From: an uncultured Bacilli bacterium
GTDB lineage: Bacteria > Bacillota_I > Bacilli_A > RF39 > UBA660
Assembly (NCBI GenBank): GCA_934086815.1
Contig: CAKOIM010000001.1
Location: forward strand, 14,366 to 78,365
Reading direction: 5' to 3'
Length of the DNA stretch: 64,000 nucleotides
Numbering within the stretch: position 1 is the first letter of the stretch; every line of letters starts with the position of its first letter. The notes under the pieces are model-generated. The model was given only the letters and a program-made list of their open reading frames with translations, had not been told where the DNA came from and did not search any database. This document shows, piece by piece, positions 17,157 to 32,404 of the stretch. A program made the position numbers and the translations under genes.

Positions 17157-17702
17157 ATGGCAAGAGTTAAAGGCGGAAATGTATCAAAAAATAGAAGAAG
17201 AAAAGTATTAAAAGAAGCAAAGGGTTATTTTGGAAGTAAACATAGACTATATAAAACTGCTCAAGAACAAGTATTCCATAGTGGAGCTTATGCTTATAGA
17301 GATAGAAAGCAAAATAAAAGAAATTTCAGAAAATTATGGATTACAAGAATAAATGCAGCATGTCGTATGAATGATATTAGTTATTCTAAATTTATAAATG
17401 GTTTAACAAAAGCTGGAATTGAAATTAACAGAAAAATGTTATCAGAAATGGCAATTGATGATGAAAAATCATTTACAGCATTAGTAGAAGTTGTTAAAAA
17501 AGCTTTAAATGGAGAAGTGAGTACTACTAAAAAAGAAGCTAAAAAAGTAGAAAAGAAAGAAGTTAAAAAGGAAGTTAAAGAAGAAGTTGTTGAAGATTTA
17601 AGTAAAAAGACTTTAGCTGAATTAAAAGCATTAGCTAAAGAAGCTGGAATTAAAGGTTATTCAACAATGAAAAAAGATGAATTATTAAGTGCTTTAAAAT
17701 AA
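17157..17702 (+). CDS. rplT: 50S ribosomal protein L20 with a roughly 60-aa C-terminal extension ending in a Rho_N/SAP-like module
   Basis: The core begins MARVKGG...RRRKVLK.AKGYFG (about 118 aa). It is followed by a Lys/Glu-rich linker and [29 protein letters not shown]. Confidence 0.9.
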
Positions 17703-23726: not shown

Positions 23727-23784
23727 GATTTTAATTGTTTGTGATTTAAAAGTATGCTACAATAAAAAAGAATAGAGGTTGCAA

Positions 23785-25311
23785 ATGAAAAATAAAAAAA
23801 CTTATTTAATTATAATTGTAATTTTACTTGCCTTAGTTGTCGTTGGAGTTACTTTTGCATTTTTTCAAGCTCAAGGGGATAAAAATGCAAGTGCTAATGT
23901 AAATGTTAAAACTGAAGATATGGACTCTTTAGTATTTTCTGTTGGAGATAAAATAAATGTATCAGCTAACCAATTTGATTTCGGTAGTAAAGCAGGAAAT
24001 AAAGTTGGTTCAACTTATGCAAAAGCTACATTAAAAACAAGCAAAAGTGCGACGGCTAATTATTATGTTTATTTAAATATAGAAACTAATGATTTTGAGT
24101 ATACAACAGATAATAAAACTGCGGAATTAATATTAACTGTAACAGATCCATCTGGTAATGAATTAACAGAGATAAATGGTCTAAATTATGTTACTGTAAA
24201 TGATATAAAGGGGTTTGATGTAACAGAAGCAAGTGGATTAATAAAACTTGTGAATAATCGTGAAATAACTTCGACCGGTATAAAAGAAGAAACTTGGAAT
24301 GTTACATTAACTTTCATAAATTTAGATAGTGATCAAGCTAAAAATGCTAAAAAAACTTTTAAAGCTACTTTAGATATTACAAAAGAAGTAAAAAGAGAAA
24401 GTGTTGCAACTTTATGTAAAAATAGAACTTTAAGTGACTGTGTTATCGCTTTATATGAACAAGGAGATAATAATATTTATTATCATAATAGCGCCTTAAA
24501 TAATGGGGCAGGTGATAATTCTTATAGATTTTCTGGTTCAAGTGACACCACAAATAACTTTGTATGTTTCGGATATGATTCAACGGATGGTACATGTCCA
24601 ACAGATAATTTGTATAGAATAATTGGTGTATTTGATGGAGAAGTAAAACTTATAAAGTATGATTATGCTAAATCAACATTGCTCGGAACAGATGGGGATT
24701 ATGGACAAACATATCAAGCAGCTGGATATGGCGGAACTAATGAAGGTCAAAATTCTACATCTGAAATTGGGGGATATTATTGGAATAGAAATGGTACAAA
24801 TACATGGAGTGAAAGCCAACTAAATACGGTTAATTTAAATAAGAATTATATAAATAATATCGGAACAAAATGGTCAGAAAAAATATCAGACCATATATGG
24901 AAAGTTGGAGGAAACACTTGGGATAATATATATAACCAAACAGCTCCAACTGCATATCAAAATGAAATAAATAATTCAGACCCAAATAAAACTGTAAATG
25001 CAAAAGTAGGATTAATGTATGTTAGTGACTATGGATATGCAGCATCATCTAGTTCATGGTCTACATTATTAAAAAGTTATAATAATGTTATAACAAATAA
25101 TTGGATGTATATGGGACTTATTGAATGGACATTGGTGCCACGGACGGACTATTCGAATCGTGCTTTCGGTGTGGATCCCACAGGCTACTTGAATAGCTAT
25201 ATTGTTCGTTCTTACACGGTCGGCGTGCGCCCAGTTTTTTACTTAACAACTGATACATCATATAAAACTGGAAATGGGACAATTTCTTCACCAATAATTA
25301 TAAATCTTTAA
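23785..25311 (+). CDS. secreted protein, paralog 1: SipW-type-like signal/TasA-like N-terminal region plus the shared C-terminal lectin-like domain with a hypervariable block
   Basis: AGAGG lies 7 nt before ATG 23785. The N-terminus reads KKTYLIIIVILLALVVVGVTFAFFQAQGD. The C-terminal 280 aa or so are roughly 85-90% identical to 30900..32117, except for the block at 25126-25245. Confidence 0.7.
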   Translation: MKNKKTYLIIIVILLALVVVGVTFAFFQAQGDKNASANVNVKTEDMDSLVFSVGDKINVSANQFDFGSKAGNKVGSTYAKATLKTSKSATANYYVYLNIETNDFEYTTDNKTAELILTVTDPSGNELTEINGLNYVTVNDIKGFDVTEASGLIKLVNNREITSTGIKEETWNVTLTFINLDSDQAKNAKKTFKATLDITKEVKRESVATLCKNRTLSDCVIALYEQGDNNIYYHNSALNNGAGDNSYRFSGSSDTTNNFVCFGYDSTDGTCPTDNLYRIIGVFDGEVKLIKYDYAKSTLLGTDGDYGQTYQAAGYGGTNEGQNSTSEIGGYYWNRNGTNTWSESQLNTVNLNKNYINNIGTKWSEKISDHIWKVGGNTWDNIYNQTAPTAYQNEINNSDPNKTVNAKVGLMYVSDYGYAASSSSWSTLLKSYNNVITNNWMYMGLIEWTLVPRTDYSNRAFGVDPTGYLNSYIVRSYTVGVRPVFYLTTDTSYKTGNGTISSPIIINL

Positions 25312-25505: not shown

Positions 25506-26429
25506 ATGGCAGTAGTTTCTATGAGTTATTTATTAGAAGCTGGAGTTCATTTTGGACATCAAACTAAAAGATGGAATCCAAAAATGAAAGAATACATTTT
25601 TACATCTAGAGATGATATTTACATTATCGACTTAGAAAAAACAAAAGCATGTTTAGAAGTTGCTTATGAAGCAGCTAAAAATATTGCAAGTAATGGAGGA
25701 AAGTTCTTATTTGTTGGAACTAGAAAACATGCTCAAGAAGTATGTTTAGAAGAAGCAACAAGAAGTAATTCTTACTATGTTACTGAAAGATGGTTAGGTG
25801 GAACACTTACAAACTTTAGAACAATTAGAAGAAGAGTTAAAAGACTTGAAGAAATTGAAGAAATGGAAAAAAATGGAACTTTTGATTTACTTCCTAAAAA
25901 AGAAGTTATTGGTCTTAAAAAAGAATATGAAAAATTAAATAAAGTTCTATGTGGAATTCGTGCGATGGATAAACTTCCTCAAGCATTAATTATTGTAGAT
26001 CCTAAAAAGGAATATAATGCTATTAAGGAAGCAAGAAAGTTAAATATTCCAGTATTTGGAGTAGTTGATACTAATTGTGATCCTGACGACGTTGATTATG
26101 TAATTCCAGGAAATGATGATGCTGTACGTTCAATTAAAGTAATGCTTGGTGTATTAACAAATGCTATTTGTGAAGCACAAGAACTACCTTTAGAAGATTA
26201 TGTTACTGAAGAAGATAAAAAAGATACAGTAAAGGAATCTAAAAAAGAAGAAGTTAAAGAAACAGTTAAAGTTGATGAAACTGTATTAGAAGAATTAAAA
26301 GAAATGGAAAAAGCTGATGAGTTAGAAAGTAAAACATTAGCAGACCTTAAAAAAATGGCTAAAGAAGCTGGAATTAAAGGTTATTCAACTATGAAAAAAG
26401 ATGAATTAGTTGCAAAACTAAGTGAATAA
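25506..26429 (+). CDS. rpsB: 30S ribosomal protein S2 with a roughly 75-aa C-terminal extension ending in a Rho_N/SAP-like module
   Basis: The core contains [18 protein letters not shown] and WLGG.LTNF. The tail has a Lys/Glu-rich linker and [30 protein letters not shown]. Confidence 0.95.
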
Positions 26430-28787: not shown

Positions 28788-30674
28788 ATGAAAAAGATTT
28801 TAACAATAATAATTACTTTTTTTGTTGTTCCTTTTGTAGCCTTAGCCGCGGATTATGATGTTGATCATTTTTATATTGATGCTACAATAAAAAATAATGG
28901 TGATATGGATGTTTCTGAGTTAATTGTTTTAAATGGAACATTCAATGGTTATGAAAGAGATATATTATATAAATCAGCATATGAAGATTATAATGCTTCA
29001 CAAATTACTAATTTAAGAGTTTATGGAAGTTATGTTGATGATGTATCTATAAATAGTTTTAATGATAATTACGAAGAATTTAATGAAGTAGAATATGCAA
29101 ATAATGGTGAGAAAAATAAATATATAGTAAGTTCTTTAGATAATGGAATAAGAATTAGAATGTATTATAATACAAATAATAAAAGTACAGCCTTTTTAAT
29201 AAAGTATACATTAAAAAATGTAGGTATAATGCATGAGGATGTTGCAGAATTTTATTGGAATTTCTTTGGTATGGACTTTGAAGATAATATTAATGATATA
29301 AAGATTAAAGTTAATTATCCGAGTAATTTAAATAAAGAAGATTTTAATTGGTGGTTTCATGGTGATCTTTCTGGTAATTCAGAAATTTATGAAGAAAATG
29401 ATGGGGTTATTCATGTTTTGGCAACATTAAATTTTTTAAAGAAGAACACTCCGATTGATTTTAGAACGCTTATTCCTAAGAATGTTTTTAGTAATATTAA
29501 TTTCATGAAATATGATAATGAATATGTAAAAGAAGATATTATAAAAAAAGAAGATGAAATAGTAAGAAAAGATAATGAGTTAAGAAGAAAAAATAAAATT
29601 GTATTTAAAACTTTTCAAGGAATGTGCGTAGCATTTTATGTAATTTTAATTATTACGTGGGTATATGTTTATAAAAAATACGATAAAGAAAGAAAACCAA
29701 AATTTATTCATAAATACAATAGAGAATTTATTGATGACTACAATGTCGAAGTAATAGATTATTTGTTTAATAATGATATTACTCCGAATGCTTTAAGTGC
29801 TTCAATAATGAATTTAATTTATAAAAAGAATATAAGTATTGATAAGACTAATTATGATAAAGAGGGGTATAGATTTATATTAAATAATCGTGATAATTTG
29901 AATGATACGGAAAATTATTTAGTAGATTTTTTGTTTAACACAGTGGGTAAAAATAGTGAAAACTATTCAAGTCAATTAACATTTACAACGAAAGATTTAA
30001 AATCTTATGCAAAATCTACGAAAACTTGTAATAGTTTTATGTCTAGCTATACTAACTGGAAAAATAAAGTTATTGAAGATGGTAAAAGGGAAGGTTTTTA
30101 TGATAATTTAAATGATAGATATAAATATGGTATATTTATTTTAATACTTGCATTTTTGATTTATTTTGTTGGAGTAGCTATTTATCATGTTAGCTTTTTA
30201 CTTATACATACTATTATTTTTGCATCCATTGCATTTATTATATATATTGGGTGTATTAAAAGAAAAAGTGAAAAGGGAATAGAGGATTATGCAAAATGGA
30301 AAGCTTTCAAAAACTTTTTAAATGATTTTGCTTCATTTGAAACTAAAGAATTGCCGGAAGTTGTGTTATGGGAAAGGTATTTAGTGTATGCGACTATATT
30401 TGGCTTAGCTAAAAAACTCGAAAAAGAAATGAATGTTAGAATAAAAGAAATAATGATTGATGATACATATTATGGAGATACTTACTTTTTTGTTAATAAT
30501 ATGAATTTAACTAGTGATATTAATGCTTCAATATCTATGGCTTATCGTGAAGCTCAAGAAACTATTACTCGTGAAAGTCTTTCATCATCTGATGGAACAT
30601 TTGGAGGAAGCGGGGGAGGATTTTCTTCTGGCGGAGGTTTTGGTGGCGGAGGCGGTGGTGGCCGAGGCTTTTAA
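28788..30674 (+). CDS. DUF2207-family membrane protein with a Gly-rich C-terminal tail
   Basis: Signal/TM sequence at MKKILTIIITFFVVPFVALA, a large extracytoplasmic domain, multiple TM helices and a GGSGGGFSSGGGFGGGGGGGRGF tail. Pairing with lemA is common. Confidence 0.8.
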   Translation: MKKILTIIITFFVVPFVALAADYDVDHFYIDATIKNNGDMDVSELIVLNGTFNGYERDILYKSAYEDYNASQITNLRVYGSYVDDVSINSFNDNYEEFNEVEYANNGEKNKYIVSSLDNGIRIRMYYNTNNKSTAFLIKYTLKNVGIMHEDVAEFYWNFFGMDFEDNINDIKIKVNYPSNLNKEDFNWWFHGDLSGNSEIYEENDGVIHVLATLNFLKKNTPIDFRTLIPKNVFSNINFMKYDNEYVKEDIIKKEDEIVRKDNELRRKNKIVFKTFQGMCVAFYVILIITWVYVYKKYDKERKPKFIHKYNREFIDDYNVEVIDYLFNNDITPNALSASIMNLIYKKNISIDKTNYDKEGYRFILNNRDNLNDTENYLVDFLFNTVGKNSENYSSQLTFTTKDLKSYAKSTKTCNSFMSSYTNWKNKVIEDGKREGFYDNLNDRYKYGIFILILAFLIYFVGVAIYHVSFLLIHTIIFASIAFIIYIGCIKRKSEKGIEDYAKWKAFKNFLNDFASFETKELPEVVLWERYLVYATIFGLAKKLEKEMNVRIKEIMIDDTYYGDTYFFVNNMNLTSDINASISMAYREAQETITRESLSSSDGTFGGSGGGFSSGGGFGGGGGGGRGF

Positions 30675-30755
30675 AACTTTAAGCTTTGATTTTCTATAAA
30701 GAAAATTAAGGCTTTTTATATAGGTGTAACTTATAATAAATGATACGAAAAGTAC

Positions 30756-30784
30756 TTGACAAGCATAGTAGAATATCTTATCAT
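30756..30784 (+). promoter_or_regulatory. sigma-A-type promoter for paralog 2 (TTGACA-17-TATCAT)
   Basis: TTGACA at 30756-30761 and TATCAT at 30779-30784. This places the transcription start a few nt before the tandem repeat array. Confidence 0.5.
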
Positions 30785-30794
30785 TTTTATAGTA

Positions 30795-30880
30795 GAGGCT
30801 TCGGGATAAGAGGCTTCGGGATAAGAGGCTTCGGGATAAGAGGCTTCGGGATAAGAGGCTTCGGGATAAGAGGCTTCGGA
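30795..30880 (+). repeat. perfect tandem repeat: 15-nt unit gaggcttcgggataa x5, plus an 11-nt partial sixth copy
   Basis: Exact copies start at 30795, 30810, 30825, 30840 and 30855; the partial copy spans 30870-30880. The array lies between the predicted promoter and ATG 30900. Confidence 0.95.
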
Positions 30881-30899
30881 AAGGGAAAGTCTTTTTGTT

Positions 30900-32117
30900 A
30901 TGAGAAAATTTATTGTGATAGTAGTTGTGGCTTTGGTAGTGTTATCCGGGTCAGGATTTTATGTTTATAAGATAAATGGTATGAGTACAACATATGAAAA
31001 TAAAGAAATTAAAAATAATAGTAATATGTTAAGTATGATGTTAGAAACTGAAGCTGGATCAGGAAAATATCAAGAAACTACGACAAGTTCATGGCCAACG
31101 GAAGGATATACATTTAATGAAAACTTATCTAAATGTGAAAAAGGGAGTAGTTTAAGTTGGGATAGTACTAAGAATACTGTAGTCATGATGGGAAATAATT
31201 CTGATAAGTGTTATGTTTATTTTGATTTAATACCGCCAGTATATTTAGCTGATCATATTAAAAGTTTATATACATCTCAAGGTGCGAATAATTTGTATTT
31301 ACATGATAATAGTCTAACAAATGGAGCTAAAGATAACTCATATCGTTATGCAGGTCCAAGTGACACCACAAATAACTTTGTATGTTTTGGATATGACTCA
31401 ACTGATGGAACATGCCCAACAGATAATTTATATAGAATCATCGGAGTATTTGATGGTGAAGTAAAACTAATAAAGTATGATTATGCAAAATCAACATTAT
31501 TAGGAACAGATGGGAATTATTATGGTGCTTATTCTTATAGCGGAACAAATAAAGGCCAAAATTCCAAAACAGAAATAGGTGTATATTATTGGAATAAAAA
31601 TACAAGTAATAATACGTGGAGTGAAAGTCAATTAAATACAGTAAATTTAAATACAAATTATTTAAAAAATATTGGCGATGAATGGTCAAAAAAAATATCA
31701 GACCATACATGGAAAGTTGGGGGAAATACTTGGAGTAATATAGCTAAACAAACAGCTCCAACAGCATATCAAAATGAAATAAATAGTCCAGCAACAAATA
31801 AAACGGTAAATGCAAAAGTAGGATTAATGTATGTAAGTGACTATGGATATGCAGCATCATCTAGTTCTTGGTCTACAACGCTTCAAAATTACAAGAATGT
31901 TATAGCAAATAATTGGATGTATATGGGTCTTTATGATTGGACATTGGCGCCTTCGACGGACGTTTCGGACCGTGCTTTCTGTGTGCACTTTGGCGGTATT
32001 GTCGGCTACTACATTGTCAACTCTAGCAGTGCGGTGCGCCCAGTCCTTTATCTGAAGTCAACAATAGGCTATGGCGGTGGAAGCGGCACGGCCGCGAAAC
32101 CGATTTTGGTGAAATAG
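30900..32117 (+). CDS. membrane-anchored/secreted protein, paralog 2: N-terminal TM and Cys-containing module plus the shared C-terminal lectin-like domain with a hypervariable block
   Basis: The N-terminus reads MRKFIVIVVVALVVLSGSG. The shared domain runs from about NNLYLHDNSLTNGAKDNSYRY to the end. The 3' end (31938 onward) is sharply GC-rich and A-poor. Confidence 0.7.
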   Translation: MRKFIVIVVVALVVLSGSGFYVYKINGMSTTYENKEIKNNSNMLSMMLETEAGSGKYQETTTSSWPTEGYTFNENLSKCEKGSSLSWDSTKNTVVMMGNNSDKCYVYFDLIPPVYLADHIKSLYTSQGANNLYLHDNSLTNGAKDNSYRYAGPSDTTNNFVCFGYDSTDGTCPTDNLYRIIGVFDGEVKLIKYDYAKSTLLGTDGNYYGAYSYSGTNKGQNSKTEIGVYYWNKNTSNNTWSESQLNTVNLNTNYLKNIGDEWSKKISDHTWKVGGNTWSNIAKQTAPTAYQNEINSPATNKTVNAKVGLMYVSDYGYAASSSSWSTTLQNYKNVIANNWMYMGLYDWTLAPSTDVSDRAFCVHFGGIVGYYIVNSSSAVRPVLYLKSTIGYGGGSGTAAKPILVK

Positions 32118-32342
32118 TGACGGAGTAAGGCGAAATCTTCGCACCCTTGATGGGACATGGTGAGCCACGAAAAAAATAAGCGAAGCGAAAAAGATTTAGA
32201 GGTTCGAAAAACTATTGCTTTATCTGGAGCAGGCTGTAAGCGTGTGCCAGTGGCATTTTTGAAAAAATATAGAACGCGGTGAAAAGAAGCAAGACACTAA
32301 AAGCGCGCTATGTATATGAAGCCCTGTATGGGCAGGGCTTCC

Positions 32343-32365
32343 AAAATTAGGCGAAGCCTAATTTT
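32343..32365 (+). other. 10-bp hairpin at the end of the GC-rich island (aaaattaggc-gaa-gcctaatttt)
   Basis: Perfect inverted repeat with a 3-nt loop. It may act as a terminator in either direction. Confidence 0.4.
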
Positions 32366-32404
32366 GTTGATAAAAATAAAATATGCTATAAATGTTATTA
32401 TAAA

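Follow-up and report, generated by a model that had tools for sequence, protein, structure and literature searches.

The described systems closest to the locus reported here are the diversity-generating retroelement (DGR) of the Bordetella phage BPP-1, with its variable region (VR) in mtd, its template repeat (TR), avd and brt, and the cellular DGRs of Treponema denticola and Legionella (Wu et al. 2018, PMC5758913). Our locus is a gene within a 64-kb stretch of DNA from an uncultured Bacilli bacterium (GTDB lineage RF39, UBA660; contig CAKOIM010000001.1), hereafter the window. This gene (30900-32117) very probably encodes a membrane-anchored surface protein with a C-terminal DUF6273-like domain, in which a VR (31944-32051) has been written by a DGR located elsewhere. 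As in BPP-1, the VR is found at the 3' end of the target, differences between TR and VR are adenine-specific, a GC-rich initiation of mutagenic homing (IMH) site has its IMH* counterpart in the TR, and both Avd and a reverse transcriptase (RT) take part. Unlike BPP-1, the element is chromosomal and not phage-borne, the genes follow the order target, TR, a MutS-like gene (MSL), avd and RT, the target domain is DUF6273-like instead of Mtd, the randomised codons are mostly AAT and AAC mixed, and there is no convincing GC-rich inverted repeat right after the IMH. With the cellular DGRs (PMC5758913) it shares dispersed target paralogs, a small MutS-like gene accompanying avd, and occasional non-A differences and indels in the VRs. 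It differs from them in its host, an uncultured gut member of the Bacilli with 26% GC, in remote copies that carry part of the target-TR spacer, and in that its activity in trans is putative.

C-lectin-like DGR targets with DUF6273 domains are known from phages (PMC10743442). These targets of Faecalibacterium phages (‘tentaclins’, Mtd-like) resemble ours in the domain family as judged by structure, in their C-type-lectin-like character and in a VR placed in surface beta hairpins; however, they are phage receptor-binding proteins, whereas the protein studied here is a membrane-anchored bacterial one, encoded in a housekeeping neighbourhood and variable at its C-terminus. A further relative is the N-terminal DUF6273 domain of the Thomasclavelia ramosa IgA peptidase (9qa6, PMC12402451), although the peptidase domain is absent from our protein and the T. 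ramosa protein is not known as DGR-diversified. Every element of the present system has a precedent (mutagenesis at adenines, IMH/IMH*, Avd plus MSL, remote targets, a DUF6273 target domain). Specific to it are its host lineage, how large and dispersed the target family is, the piece of spacer retained by remote copies and the difference in turnover between these and the cassette-adjacent copies. We found no paper linking DGRs to this lineage. Large metagenomic DGR surveys state that remote targets are missed as RT and VR lie on different contigs (PMC8144416); here, a remote VR was recognisable by sequence alone, from its A-depletion and from a TR predicted from invariant bases, and was then tied back to a cassette. 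The mechanism being that of a standard DGR, the gain lies in cataloguing and method rather than in new biology. It adds a multi-copy diversified family of surface proteins, candidate adhesins or receptors, in a little-known human gut lineage (Hadza and other cohorts).

An adenine-poor variable region and related template repeats

In a window with 40% A and 26% GC overall, the 111 nt at 31944-32054 contain 14 A and 61 G+C (55% GC, base counts), which bears out the A-depleted, GC-rich block of the initial annotation, where about 15 A had been counted by hand. No other 111-nt stretch in the 64 kb is as poor in A: 0.0016% of all 111-nt windows are equally A-poor, and windows with at most 18 A occur in this one region only. 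The raised GC content extends past the stop codon of the gene, up to about 32350. The invariant codons of the VR are GCG, TCG, ACG, GTG and GGC, so that A is avoided within a genome that otherwise favours it.

We compared six VR sequences and predicted the TR from their invariant bases, placing A at the variable positions. The resulting motif AATTCGNACAATGCTTTCAATGT (AAT TCG NAC AAT GCT TTC AAT GT; 22 specified bases), for which about 0.07 matches would be expected by chance in 596 Gb, retrieved real cassettes, one (L012) from the genome collection and one (L033) from metagenomes. L012 is a Hadza metagenome-assembled genome (MAG) of an uncultured Bacilli bacterium, in which a 654-aa homolog of the window gene precedes the motif, and open reading frames (ORFs) of 128 and 120 aa and a 365-aa RT with IGNMTSQ and YMDD motifs follow it; 13 of its 14 TR/VR mismatches are at TR adenines. 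The RT family counts 2437 members at E <= 1e-30. At the loci of one RT (P0129; L014-L021), the TR is identical in seven samples and the adjacent VR is different in every sample, with differences that, read by eye, sit at TR adenines, and this pattern demonstrates active, DGR-driven diversification of window-gene homologs.

L033 opens with 120 nt of spacer-like sequence, followed by the TR, a MutS-like ORF, Avd and the start of an RT that belongs to a cluster (P0234) encoded on L035, and further members of this RT cluster gave L036-L041 and L042. These cassettes are composed of the target, a spacer of about 250 nt, a 108-nt TR that reads TTGGCGCCT...GCGGCGCGCCCAGCCCTTTAT, a 123-aa MutS_I-like ORF (the MSL; MutS_I E = 6.8e-4), a 115-aa Avd (bAvd 2.9e-5, DivGenRetAVD 2.5e-8), a 359-aa RT (RVT_1 at 1.8e-21; LPIGNMTSQ and YMDD motifs) and an 83-aa ORF, in this order. 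The best match of the RT among solved structures was a 328-aa RT (8ub7, E = 3e-19), presumably the Bordetella DGR RT (bRT), compared to only 1e-7 for a group II intron RT. In cassettes from different species, the RT gene overlaps at its end with an ORF of 81-83 aa (L014 7082-7327; L022 3642-3890; L035 3079-3330; L036 5070-5321), which has no Pfam match and may be a further accessory gene.

Other candidate templates were rejected. Two sequences from Leptonemataceae (L013, L034) matched the motif but were without the AAY run and are not TRs, three TRs that share the register of the window VR (L012, L014 and L022) have 11-14 non-A mismatches to it and are thus homologous but not cognate, and the P0231 cassette (L027-L032) has an unrelated TR.

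The adenine-specific differences in gap-free alignments of the window VR with the TRs of same-lineage cassettes, together with the presence of a cassette in the same sample, support the proposal of the initial annotation of a past or present DGR target that depends on a TR and RT elsewhere. Compared with the closest TR, that of the related strain L036, 22 of 36 adenines but only 4 of 72 non-adenines are changed (Fisher p = 5.9e-10). One of these four non-A differences, C/T at alignment position 101 (window 32044), separates every TR (C) from every VR (T), and the remaining three (alignment positions 10, 81 and 92) are all C>T. The cassette-adjacent VRs of L036, L037, L039 and L042 have 17-19 adenines changed relative to their own TR and otherwise differ at position 101 only; here, too, the TR is constant from sample to sample. 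The TRs vary among strains at 6-8 non-A sites, and their variants recur as fingerprints in the VRs. Of eight such sites, the window VR agrees with L036 at seven and with L033 at the remaining one, and the remote VR of paralog P0017 has TCT356, GTC362, GTG368 and CGG380 in common with the TR of its own MAG (TR_L042).

These comparisons make it very improbable that the block arose without a retroelement, as a GC-rich segment gained by lateral transfer or as a hotspot of ordinary positive selection. The composition of the block is indeed foreign to the genome, and the window is devoid of RT and TR; however, the variable positions coincide with adenines of genuine templates (p = 6e-10), A is avoided in the scaffold codons, block and TR are equally long, and both IMH and spacer are common to the cassettes. 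For a VR written by a DGR, knowledge of other DGRs suggests that the 108-nt TR would be transcribed and copied into cDNA by RT, Avd and the MutS-like accessory protein, with random bases placed opposite template adenines, and that the cDNA would replace the VR in any target with a matching IMH. In this way, fifteen AAY and four single-A codons would be randomised and about 1e20 different proteins would become possible, with the scaffold codons, being free of A, left unchanged.

Table 1. Features of the window connected with the variable region and its target gene.
Feature	Position	Strand	Remarks
Target gene	30900..32117	+	405 aa; from the ORF listing
DUF6273-like (C-type-lectin-like) C-terminal domain	31572..32117	+	residues 225-405; Pfam, fold model, Foldseek
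Variable region	31944..32051	+	108 nt; gap-free and collinear with the 108-nt TRs of related cassettes
Mutagenised part of the variable region	31953-32030	+	codons 352-377
IMH equivalent GCGGTGCGCCCAGTCCTTTAT	32031..32051	+	GC-rich end of TR/VR homology
Conserved GC-rich 3' tail KSTIGYGGGSGTAAKPILVK*	32052..32117	+	outside TR homology
Remnant of the target-to-TR spacer	32118..32257	+	140 nt; 5' part of the cassette spacer
Downstream module with two hairpins	32263..32387	+	125 nt; in remote copies at unrelated loci only
Paralog B	23779..25311	+	510 aa; VR-like block 25132-25242 degenerate

The cassette and its probable remote targets

Cassettes with RT, Avd and TR, which the initial annotation had suggested looking for in the genome, occur in related gut Bacilli and in the sample of the window gene itself, although none has a TR identical to the window VR at every non-A position. 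In this Hadza sample (ERZ4561110), cassette L035 (coverage 23.6) is found together with the exact window gene (L001, 15.9) and a sister paralog, P0117, on L008 (19.7). The MAG GCA_977040285.1 contains cassette L042 and, on another contig (L009), the remote paralog P0017, which is present in identical form and with the same gene neighbourhood (L010) in GCA_977041565.1. The latter MAG also carries L004, to which the flanks of the window are 97.3% identical over 10 kb. In the same species, the cassette adjoins another paralog, upstream of rpsF-ssb-rpsR; as it is beside that paralog and not in the window, the window gene is probably a remote (trans) target. At least three family copies are present in the window strain and at least seven in the MAG EGR52, which also encodes an RT (EGR52_12650).

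Architecture of the 3' end

The IMH equivalent was placed at the last 21 nt of the VR because TR/VR homology ends there. This homology stops after ...CCAG(T/C)CCTTTAT, and sequences diverge directly past TTTAT in L035, L036 and L042. The TR counterpart of the IMH, GCGGCGCGCCCAGCCCTTTAT, is followed by divergence, and GCC in the TR versus GTC in the VR at 32044 constitutes the IMH/IMH* difference. Relative to the VRs of cassette-adjacent targets, 1-2 of the 21 nt of the window IMH differ (32035 in all, 32039 also in L035 and L042), and over IMH and tail combined (32031-32117) 3 of 87 nt differ from these actively diversified targets. Positions 32055-32114 are 100% identical to the ortholog of a strain with about 97% identity (L004), whose VR differs. 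The conserved tail had no match in viral contigs.

The initial annotation had assigned the IMH to an almost pure G/C run, ggcggtggaagcggcacggccgcg (32073-32096). This run is present in the tail but is located beyond TR homology and is not the IMH. The tail also contains a 5-bp inverted repeat, GCGGC-ACG-GCCGC (32083-32095), that begins 32 nt past the IMH, and another small hairpin is found at 32130-32142; positions 32030-32160, however, are predicted to fold no better than shuffled sequence (z = -0.17). A GC-rich inverted repeat downstream of the IMH is a feature of only about a third of DGRs (PMC5758913). Small hairpins past the stop codon do exist as initially noted, but the stretch as a whole is a remnant of the cassette spacer between target and TR: 32139-32257 is 90.8% identical to positions 1-120 of L033, and the spacer also occurs in L035, L036 and L042. 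A terminator-like hairpin (TGCCA-G-TGGCA followed by T5, 32245-32260) closes the remnant, which probably represents the 3' untranslated region together with this hairpin. The homology ends about 55 nt short of the expected TR start, and a reading of the GC-rich stretch after the stop codon as a decayed TR was ruled out, as it corresponds to the spacer upstream of the TR. Other remote copies retain shorter pieces of the spacer, and the ortholog L004 has none. Since the IMH, the conserved tail and 140 nt of target-TR spacer are retained, the window gene probably arose by duplication of a cassette-adjacent target plus its 3' flank.

The downstream module contains the hairpins AGCCCTG..CAGGGCT and AAAATTAGGC-GAA-GCCTAATTTT and is 90-93% identical to regions 3' of the remote copies on L004 (1379-1497), L006 (11638-11755) and L011 (11608-11726). 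It had no match in the cassettes L035-L042, and its absence from the far end of the cassettes speaks against a simple internal deletion. In one Hadza strain, a Transposase_mut (IS256-like) element was observed just 3' of the orthologous target gene, inside this module (L005 1489-3500).

The target protein and its fold

Three parts make up the 405-aa protein: a membrane anchor at the N-terminus (residues 1-24), a region rich in beta structure, and a C-terminal part that is conserved and ends with the VR. More than 8000 homologs were found in gut metagenomes, with many copies per genome (e.g. EGR52_ locus tags). The AlphaFold model of the whole protein has a predicted local distance difference test score (pLDDT) of 88.8, with residues 1-41 at low confidence (N-terminus disordered or anchor), and that of the C-terminal domain alone (residues 225-405) reaches 89; the VR is predicted to encode the last beta strands of the domain. 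Pfam DUF6273 (PF19789) matched below its cut-off (E = 0.0019; 18.5 bits versus 23.5) but with 149 of 172 profile positions covered. Foldseek matches in BFVD were phage DUF6273 proteins (E = 8e-6 to 1e-2, template modelling scores of 0.5-0.6), including a receptor-binding protein and a tail-collar fibre protein at E = 8e-6 to 1e-3. The T. ramosa IgA peptidase, with its N-terminal domain annotated as DUF6273, was the sole significant match among solved structures (9qa6; E = 9e-8 with the whole protein, 6e-4 with the domain). Canonical C-type lectins and Legionella Lcl/DUF1566 gave non-significant structure matches only (E of about 0.6 or higher), and the family profile had no sequence match in the PDB. 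The predicted structure thus supports membership of the C-terminal domain, by fold, in a DUF6273-like, C-type-lectin-like family. A C-type-lectin-like fold had also been anticipated in the initial annotation; its suggested relatives Mtd, TvpA and FGE, on the other hand, were not matched in the structure search with the domain model.

Among homologs, two C-terminal flanks are kept, NNWMYMGLxEWTLAP and A(A/V)RPVLYLKSTIGYGGGSGTAAKPILVK, and between them lie about 30 hypervariable residues rich in N, Y, D and S. In an alignment of 121 homologs, entropy exceeds 2.7 bits at residues 352, 355, 357, 358, 361, 363-365, 367, 369-372 and 374-377, residues that coincide with the AAY codons of the TR, and is at most 1.5 bits at S356, A359, F360, V362, G366, V368, V373, A378, R380 and P381.

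Possible rewriting and decay at the window copy

Several observations weigh against a VR written from a DGR elsewhere in this genome, or at least against its continued rewriting. The window itself, as the initial annotation had stated, holds neither RT nor TR: an ORF scan found no ORF with YxDD beyond housekeeping genes, word-7 blastn with the VR as query returned no TR-like repeat, and the TR motif had no match with up to three mismatches allowed. Cassette L035 is tied to the window genome through the shared sample and similar coverage, without physical linkage. No known TR matches the window VR at all non-A positions, the best having the three C>T differences described above, and the same-sample TR (L035) has nine non-A mismatches, or ten counting position 101, and is therefore not the writer of the present window allele. 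The VRs of paralogs within one genome are 108, 111 and 123 nt long, so that one TR cannot have written all of them in their present form. The three other assemblies with the window VR (L001-L003) show no change in it, and variants of two other remote copies (P0117/P0243 and P0007/P0245) differ outside the VR only. In contrast to these remote copies, three cassette-adjacent proteins have 13-15 differing residues that all fall within 362-387. The VR-confined variation among strains envisaged in the initial annotation is thus observed for cassette-adjacent copies and not, among the assemblies compared, for the window copy.

These findings would be explained if the VR was a fossil, written by a DGR in the past and no longer rewritten, either because remote retrohoming has ceased or because the present TR no longer matches, so that the A-poor block is a frozen imprint. 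We regard this as a serious possibility that falls slightly short of even. It is favoured by the three non-A C>T differences to the closest TR and the nine to the same-sample TR (excluding the fixed IMH/IMH* site), by the C>T substitution at 32035, within the GC core of the IMH, by the single VR sequence in all assemblies carrying the allele, by the two pairs of remote variants that vary outside the VR only, and by paralog B, in which such decay occurs within the family. However, the block still has 55% GC and 13% A in a genome of 26% GC, and the features expected of a competent target are present, i.e. an intact TR length and register, an IMH off by one base and the conserved tail. Moreover, the three non-A differences could be variants of an unseen cognate TR, given that one of them is present in TR_L033 and that TRs vary at 6-8 such sites, and the assemblies with the same VR may stem from a single clone: L002 and the window have 0 differences over 11.3 kb, so at least one of L001-L003 is probably the same clone. 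Whether the window copy is still rewritten appears evenly balanced to us, and if it is, we estimate that this happens much less often than at the cassette-adjacent copy.

The different VR of the ortholog (L004) was dropped as proof of rewriting since the divergence of the strains, as the whole 3' half of the gene is mosaic. Divergent patches (30915-31150, 31575-31700 and 31815-32054) are set in flanks of 97.3% identity, discrete alternative alleles are found directly upstream of the VR (31845-31925), and 3' modules are common to copies at unrelated loci. All this would be in line with strain differences that arise mainly by gene conversion among paralogs and not by fresh retrohoming, with the DGR having written the donor VRs elsewhere. 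We consider this explanation unlikely as the main source of the differences; it leaves the adenine-specific pattern unexplained and would complement the DGR-written VR without replacing it, and VR-limited rewriting would fit as well, since a VR with 22 differences in 60 positions is followed by a tail that is 100% identical.

For the family as a whole, we tentatively propose, while holding it somewhat doubtful, that one chromosomal DGR serves a dispersed multigene family of surface-anchored DUF6273 proteins. Rewriting would be frequent at the cassette-adjacent copy and rare at remote ones, the TR would drift between strains, and each remote VR would keep the non-A fingerprint of the TR version that wrote it last. 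If so, this fingerprint would date retrohoming events and the co-duplicated spacer would mark the birth of remote targets.

Paralogs and other features of the window

The initial annotation had pointed to a paralog (paralog B) with 38 of 45 residues identical immediately upstream of the block and about 22 of 40 within it; we found 38 of 45 and 20 of 41. Paralog B is also GC-rich at 25113-25248, but its VR-like block has three alignment gaps, 17-21 non-A mismatches to known TRs and an AT-rich tail, and 44 differences separate its 87-nt 3' element from the one of the window gene. From its sequence, the block looks like an old, decayed VR. The starts of paralog B (23779-23880) and of long cassette-adjacent forms (L012 4500-4588(-)) read ...G(V/A)T(F/Y)A(F/Y)FQAQ, which we take to resemble SipW-type (TasA/camelysin-like) signal peptides; the anchor of the window gene differs. 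Directly upstream of the VR, the homologs have few discrete alleles at 31845-31925 (AASSSSWSTxL.., AVEPSAWGTTL.., AVPQDKWTLYGYNN..), which suggests cassette-like recombination among paralogs, independent of the DGR.

Genes around the target are housekeeping ones, with DUF2207/LemA upstream, ClpB and rpsP downstream and rpsB near the paralog, and an Rfam scan of the window returned a T-box and two tRNAs only, none of them near the block. Between a promoter-like site (30756-30784) and the start codon of the target gene, a 15-nt tandem repeat (AGAGGCTTCGGGATA) occurs in six copies (30794-30884, +). Its copy number is six in the window and L003, at least eight in the otherwise 100% identical L002 and at least seven in L004, and several assemblies break at this repeat, which could act as a length-variable expression switch. 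A second GC-rich patch (30544-30701) encodes the Gly-rich tail (GGSGGGFSSGGGFGGGGGGGRGF) of the DUF2207 membrane protein and owes its composition to Gly codons, unrelated to the DGR. Finally, a 94-nt repeat with 81% identity is present at 26315-26408, where it codes for a C-terminal Rho_N-like module of ribosomal protein S2 (25506-26429), and at 17591-17684, near the close of the ORF 17157-17702.

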